Shown in pieces: positions 18,481 to 33,834 of a DNA stretch of 42,753 bases. The DNA is from a virus (lineage: Duplodnaviria; Heunggongvirae; Uroviricota; Caudoviricetes): the IMG/VR virus record IMGVR_UViG_2663763477_000009; one strand, 5' to 3'. The notes under the pieces were generated by a model. The model was not told the DNA's origin. It searched no databases and saw nothing but the letters and a program-made list of their open reading frames with translations. Position 1 is the first letter of the stretch. Each line of letters begins with the position of its first letter. The position numbers and the translations under genes are program-made.

Positions 18481-19956
18481 TTAGGAGCGCCAAAAAAAAC
18501 CTGAAAACAATATAATAACAGGATAAATTTCAAGGCGACCAAGAATCATAGCTATGCACATTAAATATTTTGCAATGTCATTAAGCACTCCGAATGACGA
18601 TGCAGTAGCCCCAAAACCTAATCCCATATTATTAATACATGCAGCCACTGTTGCAAATGATGTAAGAAAATCATATCCCATACCATTTAACACCAGTATA
18701 AAAAACACCGTGAAGAGAGTATAAAGAAAAAAGAAACTCCATACAGACCTCATTACACGATCTGTAACTATCTTCCCTCCTACATTTACACTCAACAACG
18801 CTCTGGGATGAGAAAGCTGATTTATCTCGTGTTTGCTTTGTTTGAAAAGTATAAGAAATCGAAGTGACTTAATTCCACCACAGGTTGAACCTATACATCC
18901 CCCAAAGAAACTTGACAACAGCAAAAACACTATCGTGTGCGTGGGCCAGTTTGCATAATCCTGCGTAGCTAAACCATTATCAGTGAGCATGGAGCTGGCA
19001 AGAAAAAACGAATGAATAAAACTTCCATGCAAGTCATACATACCTATATGCCAGACCTGGAAAGAGGTAACAATGATCACCCCTAAGGCTATTAACAGAA
19101 AGAAACGAAGTTCAATATCTCTGATTAAAGGTTTTATCGTTTTTCTGCTAATAACAATATACCAAAGAGTGAAGTTGAAAGCCGATAGCAGGGAAAAAGA
19201 ACCAGCCACCAGCTCAACCAAATAGTTATTAAAATATCCGATACTCTCGCTATGAGTTGAGAAACCACCAAGCGAAACTGTGGAAATCCCGTGACAAATA
19301 GCATCAAACAAAGGCATTCCTGCAAGTCTATAACAGACAATACAAGCAATACCTAATAAAGAATAAGTTATCCACAGTGTCCGTGACGTATCGGCCAGGC
19401 GGGGAGTGAGTTTGTCATCCTTAAATGGCCCCGGCATTTCTGACTGATAAAGCTTTGCACCACCAATACCCAATAATGGCAATACTGCAACCGCCAGAAC
19501 AATAACTCCTAAACCACCTATAAAATTTAACTGTGACCGATAGTACAAATATGCCCGAGGTAATGAACTAACATCATCAATTACAGTTGCTCCTGTTGTT
19601 GTTATTCCAGAAACCCCTTCAAACAGAGCATCAATGAACGTTAAATTAAGTTCTGAGTCAATCCATAAAGGGAATGCACTAATAACAGAAAACAAAATCC
19701 AAAACATTACAATTATAATAAACCCATCACGGGTACGTAATTGAATGCCAGATTTCTTAGTTGTATACCACGCTCCGCCACCAATGCAAAAAAATATAAC
19801 GAAAGTTATAAAGAAAACGAACAGGCTTTTTTCTTTATAAAACAATGCTACAACCATTGGTGGCAACATTGAAAGACTATAGAGCCAAACCAGGAACCCA
19901 CACATATGAGTAACAACTCTTACATGAGATGTATTCATATCTAAATATTCTTTCAA
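18481..19956 (-). CDS. trkG: Trk-family potassium uptake membrane protein TrkG (copy 1, full length)
   Basis: 491-aa polytopic membrane protein that I recognise as the prophage-borne TrkH paralogue TrkG. Confidence 0.9.
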   Translation of the reverse strand: MKEYLDMNTSHVRVVTHMCGFLVWLYSLSMLPPMVVALFYKEKSLFVFFITFVIFFCIGGGAWYTTKKSGIQLRTRDGFIIIVMFWILFSVISAFPLWIDSELNLTFIDALFEGVSGITTTGATVIDDVSSLPRAYLYYRSQLNFIGGLGVIVLAVAVLPLLGIGGAKLYQSEMPGPFKDDKLTPRLADTSRTLWITYSLLGIACIVCYRLAGMPLFDAICHGISTVSLGGFSTHSESIGYFNNYLVELVAGSFSLLSAFNFTLWYIVISRKTIKPLIRDIELRFFLLIALGVIIVTSFQVWHIGMYDLHGSFIHSFFLASSMLTDNGLATQDYANWPTHTIVFLLLSSFFGGCIGSTCGGIKSLRFLILFKQSKHEINQLSHPRALLSVNVGGKIVTDRVMRSVWSFFFLYTLFTVFFILVLNGMGYDFLTSFATVAACINNMGLGFGATASSFGVLNDIAKYLMCIAMILGRLEIYPVIILFSGFFWRS

Positions 19957-20075
19957 TTATAACCACCTTGCTGCAATATTATGATTATACTGTATAAAAT
20001 TTAACTCCTCTTAGATCTTACTTCACTGTTCCTTATGAAACAATCATCAAAATGAATCATATTGTAGTTAAGATT

Positions 20076-20552
20076 TTACTTTAAACACTGCTCGGTTATG
20101 TATTGCTGAGCACCTTCAAGTTGGGCCTGCATCATTACCAGTCGTTCCCGGAGGGTGAAATAATCCCGTTCAGCGGTGTCTGCCAGTCGGGGGCTGGTTG
20201 CATTATCCACGCCGGAGGCGGTGGTGGCTTCACGCACTGACTGACAGACTGCTTTGATGTGCAACCGACGACGACCAGCGGCAACATCATCACGCAGAGC
20301 ATCATTTTCAGCTTTCGCATCAGCTAACTCCTTCGTGTATTTTGCATCGAGCGCAGCAACATCACGCTGACGCATCTGCATGTCAGTAATTGCCGCGTTC
20401 GCCAGCTTCAGTTCTCTGGCATTTTTGTCGCGCTGGGCTTTGTAGGTAATGGCGTTATCACGGTAATGATTAACAGCCCATGACAGGCAGACGATGATGC
20501 AGATAACCAGAGCGGAGATAATCGCGGTGACTCTGCTCATTGCTGCCCCCAC
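20076..20552 (-). CDS. rzpR: Spanin inner-membrane subunit Rz (copy 1; without an adjacent holin/endolysin)
   Basis: 158 aa with an N-terminal TM segment and coiled-coil periplasmic domain; Rz1 is embedded in the +1 frame. Confidence 0.85.
20135..20320 (-). CDS. rzoR: Spanin outer-membrane lipoprotein Rz1 (copy 1), embedded in Rz
   Basis: 61 aa with lipobox VVGC and a Pro-rich tail ([14 protein letters not shown]), entirely inside the Rz frame. Confidence 0.8.
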
Positions 20553-20583
20553 AAACAGACTTCACGCTCAATCTCACGACGAG

Positions 20584-22053
20584 TCATGAGACCTTTCCAT
20601 TGCTTACCGCCAGCATATGTCCAGCGACGTAGCTGACAAGAATCATAGCTATGCACATTAAATATTTTGCAATGTCATTAAGCACTCCGAATGACGATGC
20701 AGTAGCCCCAAAACCTAATCCCATATTATTAATACATGCAGCCACTGTTGCAAATGATGTAAGAAAATCATATCCCATACCATTTAACACCAGTATAAAA
20801 AACACCGTGAAGAGAGTATAAAGAAAAAAGAAACTCCATACAGACCTCATTACACGATCTGTAACTATCTTCCCTCCTACATTTACACTCAACAACGCTC
20901 TGGGATGAGAAAGCTGATTTATCTCGTGTTTGCTTTGTTTGAAAAGTATAAGAAATCGAAGTGACTTAATTCCACCACAGGTTGAACCTATACATCCCCC
21001 AAAGAAACTTGACAACAGCAAAAACACTATCGTGTGCGTGGGCCAGTTTGCATAATCCTGCGTAGCTAAACCATTATCAGTGAGCATGGAGCTGGCAAGA
21101 AAAAACGAATGAATAAAACTTCCATGCAAGTCATACATACCTATATGCCAGACCTGGAAAGAGGTAACAATGATCACCCCTAAGGCTATTAACAGAAAGA
21201 AACGAAGTTCAATATCTCTGATTAAAGGTTTTATCGTTTTTCTGCTAATAACAATATACCAAAGAGTGAAGTTGAAAGCCGATAGCAGGGAAAAAGAACC
21301 AGCCACCAGCTCAACCAAATAGTTATTAAAATATCCGATACTCTCGCTATGAGTTGAGAAACCACCAAGCGAAACTGTGGAAATCCCGTGACAAATAGCA
21401 TCAAACAAAGGCATTCCTGCAAGTCTATAACAGACAATACAAGCAATACCTAATAAAGAATAAGTTATCCACAGTGTCCGTGACGTATCGGCCAGGCGGG
21501 GAGTGAGTTTGTCATCCTTAAATGGCCCCGGCATTTCTGACTGATAAAGCTTTGCACCACCAATACCCAATAATGGCAATACTGCAACCGCCAGAACAAT
21601 AACTCCTAAACCACCTATAAAATTTAACTGTGACCGATAGTACAAATATGCCCGAGGTAATGAACTAACATCATCAATTACAGTTGCTCCTGTTGTTGTT
21701 ATTCCAGAAACCCCTTCAAACAGAGCATCAATGAACGTTAAATTAAGTTCTGAGTCAATCCATAAAGGGAATGCACTAATAACAGAAAACAAAATCCAAA
21801 ACATTACAATTATAATAAACCCATCACGGGTACGTAATTGAATGCCAGATTTCTTAGTTGTATACCACGCTCCGCCACCAATGCAAAAAAATATAACGAA
21901 AGTTATAAAGAAAACGAACAGGCTTTTTTCTTTATAAAACAATGCTACAACCATTGGTGGCAACATTGAAAGACTATAGAGCCAAACCAGGAACCCACAC
22001 ATATGAGTAACAACTCTTACATGAGATGTATTCATATCTAAATATTCTTTCAA
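20584..22053 (-). CDS. trkG: TrkG copy 2 with a replaced C-terminus (last 19 aa exchanged for 17 unrelated aa at the duplication junction)
   Basis: Identical to copy 1 until ...CIAMIL, then diverges where the unit joins the endolysin 3' fragment. Confidence 0.8.
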
Positions 22054-22172
22054 TTATAACCACCTTGCTGCAATATTATGATTATACTGTATAAAATTTA
22101 ACTCCTCTTAGATCTTACTTCACTGTTCCTTATGAAACAATCATCAAAATGAATCATATTGTAGTTAAGATT

Positions 22173-22649
22173 TTACTTTAAACACTGCTCGGTTATGTAT
22201 TGCTGAGCACCTTCAAGTTGGGCCTGCATCATTACCAGTCGTTCCCGGAGGGTGAAATAATCCCGTTCAGCGGTGTCTGCCAGTCGGGGGGAGGCTGCAT
22301 TATCCACGCCGGAGGCGGTGGTGGCTTCACGCACTGACTGACAGACTGCTTTGATGTGCAACCGACGACGACCAGCGGCAACATCATCACGCAGAGCATC
22401 ATTTTCAGCTTTCGCATCAGCTAACTCCTTCGTGTATTTTGCATCGAGCGCAGCAACATCACGCTGACGCATCTGCATGTCAGTAATTGCCGCGTTCGCC
22501 AGCTTCAGTTCTCTGGCATTTTTGTCGCGCTGGGCTTTGTAGGTAATGGCGTTATCACGGTAATGATTAACAGCCCATGACAGGCAGACGATGATGCAGA
22601 TAACCAGAGCGGAGATAATCGCGGTTACTCTGTTCATTGCTGACCCCAC
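22173..22649 (-). CDS. Spanin inner-membrane subunit Rz (copy 2, part of the lysis cassette)
   Basis: 158 aa; differs from copy 1 at three residues; its start overlaps the endolysin stop. Confidence 0.85.
22232..22417 (-). CDS. Spanin outer-membrane lipoprotein Rz1 (copy 2), embedded in Rz
   Basis: 61-aa lipoprotein; one Ala-to-Pro difference from copy 1. Confidence 0.8.
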
Positions 22650-23131
22650 AAACAGATTTCACGCTCAATCTCACGACGAGTCATGAGACCTTTCCATTGC
22701 TTACCGCCAGCATATGTCCAGCGACGTAGCTGATCACATGCGCCTTTGATATCGCCCTGGTTTATTTTGCGAAGAAGCGTCGATGTTCTGAAATTGCCAG
22801 CACCCACGTTGTAAACGAATGAGTAAAGAGCGCCGCGCGTTGTTTCCGGTATATCGACTTTGATGTACGGGTTAATTTGTCTGGCGACAGTGGCAAGGTC
22901 TTTATTCAAGAGTGTTTTGCATTCTGCTTTGGTATACGTTTTACCGAGCATGATGTCTTTTCCTGTATGCCCGTGACATACAGTCCATACACCAACAATA
23001 TCTTTGTATGGTATGTAGCTGACACCTTCCAGACCATCGTTACCACTTGGGCCAGTGATTAACACTGATGCTATAGCAATTGCTCCGCCACCAATAGCAG
23101 CAGCAACGACTTTTCGTAATGATGGAGGCAT
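22634..23131 (-). CDS. SAR endolysin (phage-21 R-type lysozyme)
   Basis: 165 aa with an N-terminal Gly/Ala-rich signal-anchor-release segment ([18 protein letters not shown]) followed by a lysozyme domain. Confidence 0.85.
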
Positions 23132-26446: not shown

Positions 26447-27045
26447 TACGCAAACTCCAGTAGTTGTGCGGCCACATTTTCAACTTCCTCCTGAGAGGAG
26501 AATTTACGGAACAGAATCCAGTTCCACAGCACATTCAGTACAGATTTATAAACCTGCTGAAACTCGACTTCGTCCATATTCGCAAAAGCGATGGATTTTG
26601 CCCGACGCCCACGGCTACCGTCCGGATAAATATGCTCGGTGTAAAATCCGGCCTGAATGGTTACCCACTCGCGGAAAGCCTCAAACGACTTTAGCAACGC
26701 CGTATCCCGGGTTCTACGAGTCGCAACGGTGTTAAGGTATTGCTCTGCGGCATCACTCAGGGCTGGCGTGTGTTCCCGACCAACTGATTCGCACAGGTAA
26801 TCAACGAAACCAGACAGCAGTTCTCGTTCGCGAGGCGTGATCGCCCCACCGACCGGAGTCCAGTAATCGAAACCCAGTTGCAGGAGTTTGAAAAAACGCT
26901 TGTGGAATGCGTAGTTACACACACGCTTAAAGTCTGCGTGTATCCACTCACCTATTTTGATTTGATGCAGAAAATCGCAACTCTCCGGCGTCGCCGGGAG
27001 AAGTAATCCGGAAGAGGTTTGTTTGACCAGTTGTATATGCGCCAT
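26446..27045 (-). CDS. nin-region hypothetical protein (DUF1367-like)
   Basis: 199-aa ORF translationally coupled to the ybcO-like gene. Confidence 0.5.
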   Translation of the reverse strand: MAHIQLVKQTSSGLLLPATPESCDFLHQIKIGEWIHADFKRVCNYAFHKRFFKLLQLGFDYWTPVGGAITPRERELLSGFVDYLCESVGREHTPALSDAAEQYLNTVATRRTRDTALLKSFEAFREWVTIQAGFYTEHIYPDGSRGRRAKSIAFANMDEVEFQQVYKSVLNVLWNWILFRKFSSQEEVENVAAQLLEFA

Positions 27046-32211: not shown

Positions 32212-32952
32212 TTACTTCTCAATTCCTGGCTGGACGACATTCGGACGCCAGCTCTCCCAGTTAAAATTCACCCAGCGCCCGCCGTTCATGGTCATGCGAT
32301 CCATAATCCGCTCGCCGAGCAATGTTTTCATGGCCTCATAGTTCAGGTTTGTCAGCATCCCCACGCTGCGCATCGACGCTGTCCGGCGATCAACAATCTG
32401 GTGCAGCACCACCTGCTCGTTTTTCGTCTCGCGCTGAATGCCAATTTCATCAAGAACCAGCAGATCCACTTCGCATAGTTCCCGCAAAAATTTTTCGCCT
32501 GACTGCCCATCGTCATAGCTGGCGTGCAGGGCACTCATAACATCAGCCACGGTAACCACAATCACTGTCTGACCGTCTTTCAGCAGGCGATTCCCGATAG
32601 CTGCCGCTAAGTGGTTCTTCCCGGTACCAGGTTTTCCGCTGAACGCAAAATTTGTACACCCGGTCATCAGTTCATCAGCGATGGATTTCGCCTGACTCAA
32701 CGCGTATCGCTGCGCTTCGTTCTGCACCTGGTAATTCGAAAACGAGCATTTGCGGTGCAATGGCTGGATGCCTGAGCGATTCAGAATTTTTTCCACCCGC
32801 AACTGACGATTCTGACGGTTGATCTCCTCACAACGTTTCTGGCCTTCGGAAAGTTGCCACTCGCGCCACTCCGCTACCGTCTTGAATGGCGCGGTTACAT
32901 GTGACGGGGCCAGTCTGCGGATACGTTCAAGAACGTCGCCTGTCGCAATATT
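32212..32952 (-). CDS. ydaV: DnaC-like helicase loader (lambda P functional analogue), YdaV-like
   Basis: Walker [10 protein letters not shown] and Walker B LLVLDEIG; an internal ATG (MKNIATG...) preceded by AGGGGGGAA; C-terminal 246 codons of a continuous 536-codon ORF. Confidence 0.8.
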
Positions 32953-33771
32953 TTTCATGGTCCGTTCCCCCCTGAAGCCTGGCGGGATCGCACTGTCCGG
33001 CAACGAGACGGTGTTAACCTGTCGGAGCAACGTCTCAGGTCGAACACCTTTCGGCGCGAACAAGCCCTGGTATTCATTGGCGATGCTGTGTCGAATCACC
33101 TGCTCAGGTGAAAAACCCTGCTGGCGGAATTTTTCCAGCTCCCGTATCGCCCCGTTAGCGCCCTGCTCCGTTCGAATCGGTTTTCGCAATGCCTGGCGAA
33201 ATTCAACCCACTCACGCCAAAGCGAGACAGAAATCCAGTTCGGCAAAGCAATATCCAGAGGGTCAAACTTTTTGACACCTCGATTCCCCCGGGGGGGATT
33301 TAGGGGGGGATCTGTTTTTAGATCTTTATCTGTATCTTTATTAGTTGCCTTTGTGTTGACATCATGTTCAAACACCACTTCAACATCTGTTTGAACACCT
33401 GTTAAATTTCTCTCTTGTTTTGTTTGAACATCTGCTTCCTTTCTGCTTCTTCTGGCCTGAACAGATGCTTTTCCTGCGGCTGATTTTTTGGTTAATTTTT
33501 CCCTGACTGATGCCAGATCTTCCTCAATCCGAAGATGCACCCATTCCTCGCCGTTATCGCAAAAAAACTCCTGCAAGGATGGTTCAACATCAGCCCATCG
33601 CTCGTTAGTCAGACGGGCAATTTTTGCCAGCCTGTTTTTAGGTATTGGCTTTCCTGTTTGCCAGTAATTGAACATCAGCAACAAATACGCACCATGCTCC
33701 TCTGCTGACAAATGCATGGTGTCAGCCAGGTAATCAGCTATGTACAGTTGCATGTATGGTAATGCGGCCAT
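32953..33771 (-). CDS. ydaU: Replication initiation protein (O-like), YdaU-like; reads through into ydaV without a stop in this window
   Basis: N-terminal segment MAALPYMQLYIADYLADTMHLSAEEHGAYLLLM; iteron-like repeats inside its coding region. Confidence 0.7.
33285..33470. repeat. Putative replication origin inside the O-like gene: iteron-like repeats plus C/G homopolymer tracts
   Basis: Three or more copies of TGTTTGAACA and its complement, repeated ATCTG elements, and the tract cccccggggggg-atttag-ggggggg. Confidence 0.45.
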
Positions 33772-33834
33772 AATTGCCCCGTATGATGCTGCCCGGTGGC
33801 TTAGAATAAGCACAAACAGCATGGAAACTTTTGC

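Follow-up and report, generated by a model that had tools for sequence, protein, structure and literature searches.

The fused reading frame and its two parts

The window, that is the whole 42,753-nucleotide stretch of viral DNA analysed, carries on its minus strand an open reading frame of 536 codons (32212..33822) that begins with ATG and runs through ydaU and ydaV without a stop, as seen in the ORF listing with its translation. The product is deposited as CSU60226.1, a 'putative replication protein' of Shigella sonnei. An earlier note on this DNA had described the uninterrupted frame, leaving its strand out, and the junction residues that it quoted are found in the translation. The components of the frame all lie on the minus strand. 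The ydaU-equivalent part occupies codons 1-285 (32968..33822) and comprises a DUF1376 N-domain, a disordered linker and a DnaT-like C-domain ending in IPPGFRG. It is followed by GAA (Glu286; 32965..32967), which in the allele comparison stands where every other allele examined has the ydaU stop TAA, and by the two-codon spacer CGG ACC (32959..32964), normally an untranslated intergenic sequence that varies between alleles (CTG, CAG or CGG, then ACC or TCC). The ydaV-equivalent part (32212..32958) has its own ATG (32956-32958) and codes for a DnaC paralogue of 248 amino acids, plus a stop.

The junction has the gene-strand sequence GGC TTC AGG GGG GAA CGG ACC ATG AAA. The Shine-Dalgarno-like sequence of ydaV, AGGGGGGAA (32965-32973), recognised from the junction sequence and from its predicted pairing with the 16S 3' end, and the ydaV ATG both lie at the module boundary, where the note had placed them. 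The base that differs from the other alleles is window position 32967 (C on the plus strand and G on the gene strand; A/T in the other alleles) and is immediately preceded by a run of five G residues (G5).

The DUF1376 domain (PF07120) of the YdaU part covers residues 22-104 (E 5e-26, 91.2 bits against a Pfam cut-off of 30.1), and YdaU matches PHROG 6451 'primosomal protein' with an E-value of 1e-123. The model predicts a disordered linker at residues 124-165 and subsequently a confident three-helix C-domain, with a tail that ends in IPPGFRG. The last ~75 residues share 40% identity with the C-terminus of E. coli K-12 DnaT (E 9e-09, pairwise BLASTP) and match weakly the DnaT C-domain structure PDB 2RU8 (E 0.002). 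The DnaT C-terminal domain PF17948, carried by many relatives, has no match in the window protein at E <= 0.01. The description of the module as O-like holds as an analogy only: Pfam Phage_rep_O (PF04492) gives no match at E <= 0.01, and residues 112-259 match PHROG 678 'replication initiation O-like' partially. Stand-alone YdaU proteins were defined by a length of ~270-350 amino acids and by ...PPGF[RK]G followed by a stop; in the window protein GAA replaces that stop. Most YdaU homologues start at codon 18 (window 33771; MAALPYMQLY...). Codon 18 may be the real start and the RefSeq/K-12 start, 17 codons upstream (33771-33822), an over-extension.

In the YdaV part, the IstB_IS21/DnaC-like ATPase domain (PF01695) is found at residues 332-509 (E 1e-19, 71.4 bits against a Pfam cut-off of 24.1) and the Walker A motif GKPGTGKN is present in the translation. 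Residues 290-529 of the fused ORF align YdaV end to end with DnaC in PDB 6QEL/6QEM (E 2e-75). The score for the NCBIfam subfamily PRK12377 (504.5 bits) passes its cut-off of 389, that for the DnaC equivalog NF005931 (306.9 bits) lies below its cut-off of 357, and PHROG 50 'DnaC-like helicase loader' is matched as well. By its profile scores, YdaV is a DnaC paralogue and not the host DnaC. The DnaC-like loader module of the earlier note is confirmed by the ATPase domain, by PDB 6QEL and by PRK12377. Residues 2-57 of YdaV align with the N-terminal segment of DnaC (residues 2-55), solved alone as PDB 6KZA; this segment is the DnaB-binding domain of DnaC.

The linker-coding part of ydaU also contains three exact copies of TGTTCAAACA (33364..33431), two in one orientation and one inverted, within 67 bp and in a dip of 36-37% GC. 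The 42.7-kb window holds no further exact copies, and ~0.08 are expected by chance. The copies adjoin a GATC-containing AT-rich sequence and two C7 runs. They are kept in K-12, O26 and E. ruysiae, which have the same N-domain, and are absent from the alleles with a different initiator N-domain. The origin of lambda sits within the O gene; the ydaU linker likewise combines repeated motifs with an AT-rich stretch, and by this analogy the repeats are candidate iterons of an origin inside the initiator gene. Rac has been reported with an active origin, oriJ (PMC3945230). That the candidate origin is oriJ is a conjecture. The repeats are context and play no part in the loss of the stop.

Reference alleles and the distribution of the open frame

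In E. coli K-12 MG1655, ydaU (b1359, 858 nt, 285 amino acids) and ydaV (b1360, 747 nt, 248 amino acids) are separate genes, as the note had correctly stated. The start of ydaV lies 6 nt past the ydaU stop and in the same frame, and E. coli O26:H11 11368 has the same layout. In both, ydaV begins 864 nt (288 codons) after the start of ydaU, so that the two genes share one frame in the normal state. The aligned junctions read GGGGG-TAA-CTG-ACC-ATG in K-12 and O26 versus GGGGG-GAA-CGG-ACC-ATG in the window. The nucleotide alignment with the K-12 pair, which had been proposed as a check, therefore places TAA opposite GAA, and relative to all reference alleles the window has T->G at ORF nt 856, which turns codon 286 from TAA into GAA. 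An in-frame stop followed by two codons and ATG is present in K-12, O26, E. ruysiae, S. flexneri, Citrobacter braakii and a soil MAG; with the genes already arranged in this way, loss of the stop alone suffices for fusion. The ancestral layout, ...GFRG-TAA-xx-xx-ATG with the ydaV Shine-Dalgarno sequence within the last ydaU codons, is that of a typical translationally coupled pair.

The read-through aside, YdaU and YdaV have the amino acids of the common E. coli proteins, and YdaU is identical to that of O26. Compared with the O26 allele, the window has 7 differences in 1611 nt: five synonymous changes, one in the spacer and T856G. Over the same 1611 nt the identity with the K-12 Rac pair is 99.2% (13 differences). 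K-12 Rac and the window have in common the gene order (HTH repressor, ydaS-like, ydaT, ydaU, ydaV, DUF1627, DUF977), the frame relationship and the Shine-Dalgarno sequence and ATG. On the other hand, codon 286 is TAA in K-12, giving two proteins (285 and 248 amino acids), and GAA in the window, giving one 536-codon frame; moreover, K-12 Rac is a 23-kb remnant, whereas the window holds a Rac-type prophage of full length that includes head and tail genes and shares 99.9% identity with its full-length counterpart in E. coli NCTC10444. The ydaUVW genes are described as RacR-controlled operon genes without determined function (PMC11014345).

The distribution of the two codons was examined with 45-mers that had the stop position at their centre, which forces each 28-nt seed to span it. 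The TAA-centred 45-mer matches 1021 of 5426 complete E. coli genomes (1032 places; 962 genomes at ≥99% identity), whereas the GAA-centred 45-mers, in either spacer context, match none of the 5426. The TAA 45-mer serves as a positive control, and the low-complexity filter is not responsible for the empty GAA results. With megablast, the 81-nt junction is found in 694 complete E. coli genomes, none of them identical to the window. When metagenome contigs were scanned with a pattern accepting either G or T at the stop, all 37 contigs recovered had T (TAA). The GTDB species representatives of E. coli, E. ruysiae, S. flexneri and Citrobacter braakii and the soil MAG show ...PPGF[RK]G, a stop, two codons and MKNI...; the Citrobacter braakii and soil MAG copies keep the stop at 74% protein identity. 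Two identical loci from GTDB representatives (L058, L059) carry a frameshift upstream. The same open frame is thus found in none of the reference alleles, since K-12, O26, the complete genomes, the metagenome contigs and the species representatives all keep the stop.

At the protein level, the exact 536-residue sequence occurs on one contig only (CXGV01000014.1, assembly GCA_001250855.1, Shigella sonnei, CSU60226.1), from which the window itself derives. Public assemblies contain the exact 248-residue YdaV very often (it is listed in 6294 blocks of the collection), and in the 10 contexts shown ydaU is a separate 285-residue gene or, once, disrupted by an IS. A HMMER search of 1.84 billion representatives gave no YdaU-YdaV fusion, and nothing that spans the two halves, among the best 150 matches; this is telling because both halves of any moderately similar fusion would score and place it at top rank. 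The word-indexed protein search gave no full-length fusion among the listed matches, all of which are of ≥294 amino acids, the ordinary 285- and 248-residue proteins being absent from them. Recurrence of the fused architecture in independent genomes is accordingly nil across the 1021 TAA-matching genomes, the 37 metagenome contigs and the best 150 HMMER matches. Other S. sonnei copies were sought via the neighbouring DUF1627 protein, and the exact DUF1627 protein is also unique to this contig.

Several candidates for a fusion were considered and set aside. YdaU variants of odd length are due to G-run frameshifts, to a ydaV deletion that starts at the stop or to upstream extensions. P0041, with 4 sequences and seen only in Logan run assemblies, is a fused host DnaT-DnaC pair, the fragment P0196 diverges from the DnaC family at its C-terminus, and P0211 (827 amino acids) consists of four tandem DnaC-like ATPase units without DUF1376. 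Programmed read-through of the wild-type stop was dropped as well: the stop is TAA, the spacer codons vary freely and there is no sign of a recoding signal.

Origin of the base change

Of the seven differences from the closest alleles, five fall, by allele alignment, in a 66-nt patch on the minus strand (32963..33028; ORF nt 795-860). A second natural allele lineage, represented by E. coli FDAARGOS_943, has another initiator N-terminus and is ~92% identical from nt 497 on. This lineage carries four of the five patch bases together, the CGG spacer codon included, yet has TAA, and the same four-base combination with TAA is also found in metagenome contigs. The cluster as a whole is consequently not novel, four of its changes being a known combination of TAA-bearing alleles; T856G is the sole patch base with no counterpart in any allele examined. 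Because the four changes co-occur in the second lineage, the patch looks like a short recombination tract or paralogue mixing in the assembly.

In public data (proteins P0001-P0010), breaks recur at the G5-TAA end of ydaU. P0002 and P0006 have G-run length errors or frameshifts exactly at the ydaU end. Several E. coli assemblies lack ydaV and the 5' part of the DUF1627 gene past the position of the ydaU stop, which results in a 315-residue YdaU variant (P0004; L065 2501-3448).

Further differences are distributed along the prophage. The window contains a 2097-bp tandem duplication (18540-20636 and 20637-22733) whose copies differ at 7 positions clustered near the 3' end; it spans most of trkG, an Rz-like lysis gene and the start of rrrD, is single copy in the NCTC10444 prophage and could be real or an assembly artefact. 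A ydaY homologue on the minus strand (window ~6192), placed between the tape-measure and tail-tube genes, has AAA->TAA relative to NCTC10444 and hence a premature stop, the second stop-related difference in the prophage. The differences from NCTC10444 are clustered (119-181, 1433-1547, 20194-20560 and 26872-27010), with 4-7 substitutions per ~60-370 nt and kilobases of identity between the clusters. Short recombination patches between lambdoid prophages typically give such a distribution, as does paralogue mixing in the assembly.

The locus is probably an ordinary Rac-type lambdoid ydaU-ydaV module in which a private T->G substitution has converted the ydaU TAA into GAA in one isolate. The 52 other substitutions relative to NCTC10444 are 25 synonymous, 15 non-synonymous and 11 intergenic, mostly transitions in the half that was tallied; by their composition they look like natural polymorphism, which counts for a real variant, as do the 99.9% identity with the NCTC10444 prophage and the essentially unaltered Shine-Dalgarno pairing. 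Uniqueness extends to the neighbouring DUF1627 protein, and the prophage lineage is thus simply one that has rarely been sampled.

A sequencing or assembly artefact is possible, if clearly less probable: the isolate would have TAA, and the G would be a consensus error after G5, perhaps made worse by the mixing into this contig of reads that stem from a paralogous ydaU-like prophage copy. The GAA allele is a singleton, missing from more than 1000 genomes and from all 37 metagenome contigs and present on one contig in the protein index, and the stop that it removes is conserved in every other copy examined. The substitution repeats the G of the run before it (GGGGG-T becoming GGGGGG), and in Illumina data post-homopolymer miscalls are favoured in the context of T->G after GGGGG. 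The agreement of four of the five patch differences with another lineage is what would be expected from paralogue mixing in a de Bruijn assembly, P0002 and P0006 err exactly at this place, and the near-identical tandem duplication on the same contig is hard for short reads, which makes the local assembly quality doubtful. The exact protein is present in NCBI, NCBI nr and MetaClust and not in the independent Logan assemblies, a weak point in that Logan contigs are short. On the other hand, consensus substitution errors are rare in deep Illumina assemblies, and the remaining differences of the window are mainly synonymous and transitions, as in real divergence. Furthermore, none of the sampled paralogous lineages has G at the changed position, and therefore mixing alone cannot create it.

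The earlier note had offered two explanations, a lost stop or a fused initiator-loader protein plus an internally initiated loader. The first is borne out by T856G. The second, in which a selected YdaU-YdaV polypeptide together with internally initiated YdaV would be the normal replication machinery of the prophage, is very improbable. It agrees with the open frame, with the intact Shine-Dalgarno sequence and ATG at the domain boundary and with the in-frame spacing of both genes, which is conserved across genera. The PHROG 50 and 27475 profiles (570 and 599 positions) also reach ~255 and ~390 positions upstream of the YdaV match, a hint that some phages may have multi-domain proteins with a C-terminal DnaC-like ATPase. 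Against a selected fusion, the stop is conserved in every other allele, the 74%-identical ones included, the GAA allele is confined to one contig, and no DUF1376/DnaT-DnaC fusion family appears among the best 150 HMMER matches, the junction-spanning P0041 and P0196 having been dismissed. The extension would, in addition, sit on the segment aligned with the DnaC N-terminal domain. As a singleton in a draft assembly, the fusion is not an architecture of this prophage family. The locus is a known gene pair with a private stop-loss allele or a base-call error and not a new kind of replication protein.

Predicted consequences of the stop loss and related replication modules

If the substitution is real, ribosomes translating ydaU would continue via Glu-Arg-Thr into ydaV and produce a YdaU-ERT-YdaV chain. 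The computed mass of the fusion is 61.0 kDa, or 59.2 kDa from Met18, compared with 32.5 or 30.6 kDa for YdaU alone. Free YdaU would no longer be made. With the coupling of termination and reinitiation lost, free 28-kDa YdaV would arise only by de novo initiation at the intact Shine-Dalgarno sequence and ATG. The predicted pairing of this Shine-Dalgarno sequence with the 16S 3' end is -10.2 kcal/mol in the window versus -10.7 in the wild type, and the local mRNA fold (75 nt) is predicted to gain somewhat in stability (-20.5 versus -14.3 kcal/mol). The 288-residue N-terminal extension on YdaV would more probably impair than improve helicase loading, given that the YdaV N-terminus aligns with the DnaB-binding segment of DnaC. 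The GAA allele is most readily viewed as a prophage lesion, neutral or mildly deleterious, and not as a designed fusion.

The closest host counterpart is dnaT-dnaC. The loader DnaC is the end-to-end alignment partner of YdaV and both begin with MKN; the C-termini of DnaT and YdaU are alike and both proteins end in IPPGFRG followed by TAA. The junction DNA is itself recognisably homologous (GGATTCAGAGGGTAACGATGAAAAA in ydaU-ydaV, window 32959-32990, versus GGCTTCAGGGGGTAACTGACCATGAAAAA in host dnaT-dnaC, K-12 L064 860-900). By these likenesses the ydaU-ydaV module of the prophage is evidently a paralogue of the host primosome module. The host pair differs in that DnaT lacks the extra N-terminal DUF1376 domain of YdaU, and in its spacer, which is 2 nt long and out of frame, whereas that of Rac ydaU-ydaV is 6 nt long and in frame. 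A stop loss in dnaT would consequently not fuse the host genes.

The lambda O and P genes occupy the same position in the lambdoid early-right operon, after a cII-like gene, and share with ydaU-ydaV the two-protein logic of an initiator and a loader. The loaders are of different types, a P-type protein in lambda and a DnaC-type AAA+ ATPase in ydaV, and Pfam Phage_rep_O and Phage_lambda_P have no match in the window protein (E <= 0.01). In the wild type, the YdaU N-domain would bind the origin and the DnaT-like C-domain would recruit DnaB bound to YdaV. The wild-type pair is, by analogy, likely a functional counterpart of lambda O and P, with folds that are unrelated or partly related.

It is unlikely, though of some interest, that the G is real and that the lysogen makes a covalent YdaU-YdaV protein which still supports prophage replication. 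In that case, one polypeptide could perform both origin recognition and helicase loading in the YdaU-YdaV family, and it would offer a natural 1:1 tethered complex for structural study of how a DnaT-like tail hands DnaB-DnaC to DNA. The private stop loss or base-call error, occurring in a known prophage replication pair of one draft genome, has otherwise little biological weight. For annotation, CSU60226.1 is to be treated with caution as the read-through of two genes. As initiator and loader genes of this family lie in frame, a stop and two codons apart, single-base events create apparent fusions. The interest for Rac replication may lie in the homology between the ydaU-ydaV and dnaT-dnaC junctions and in the candidate origin inside ydaU.
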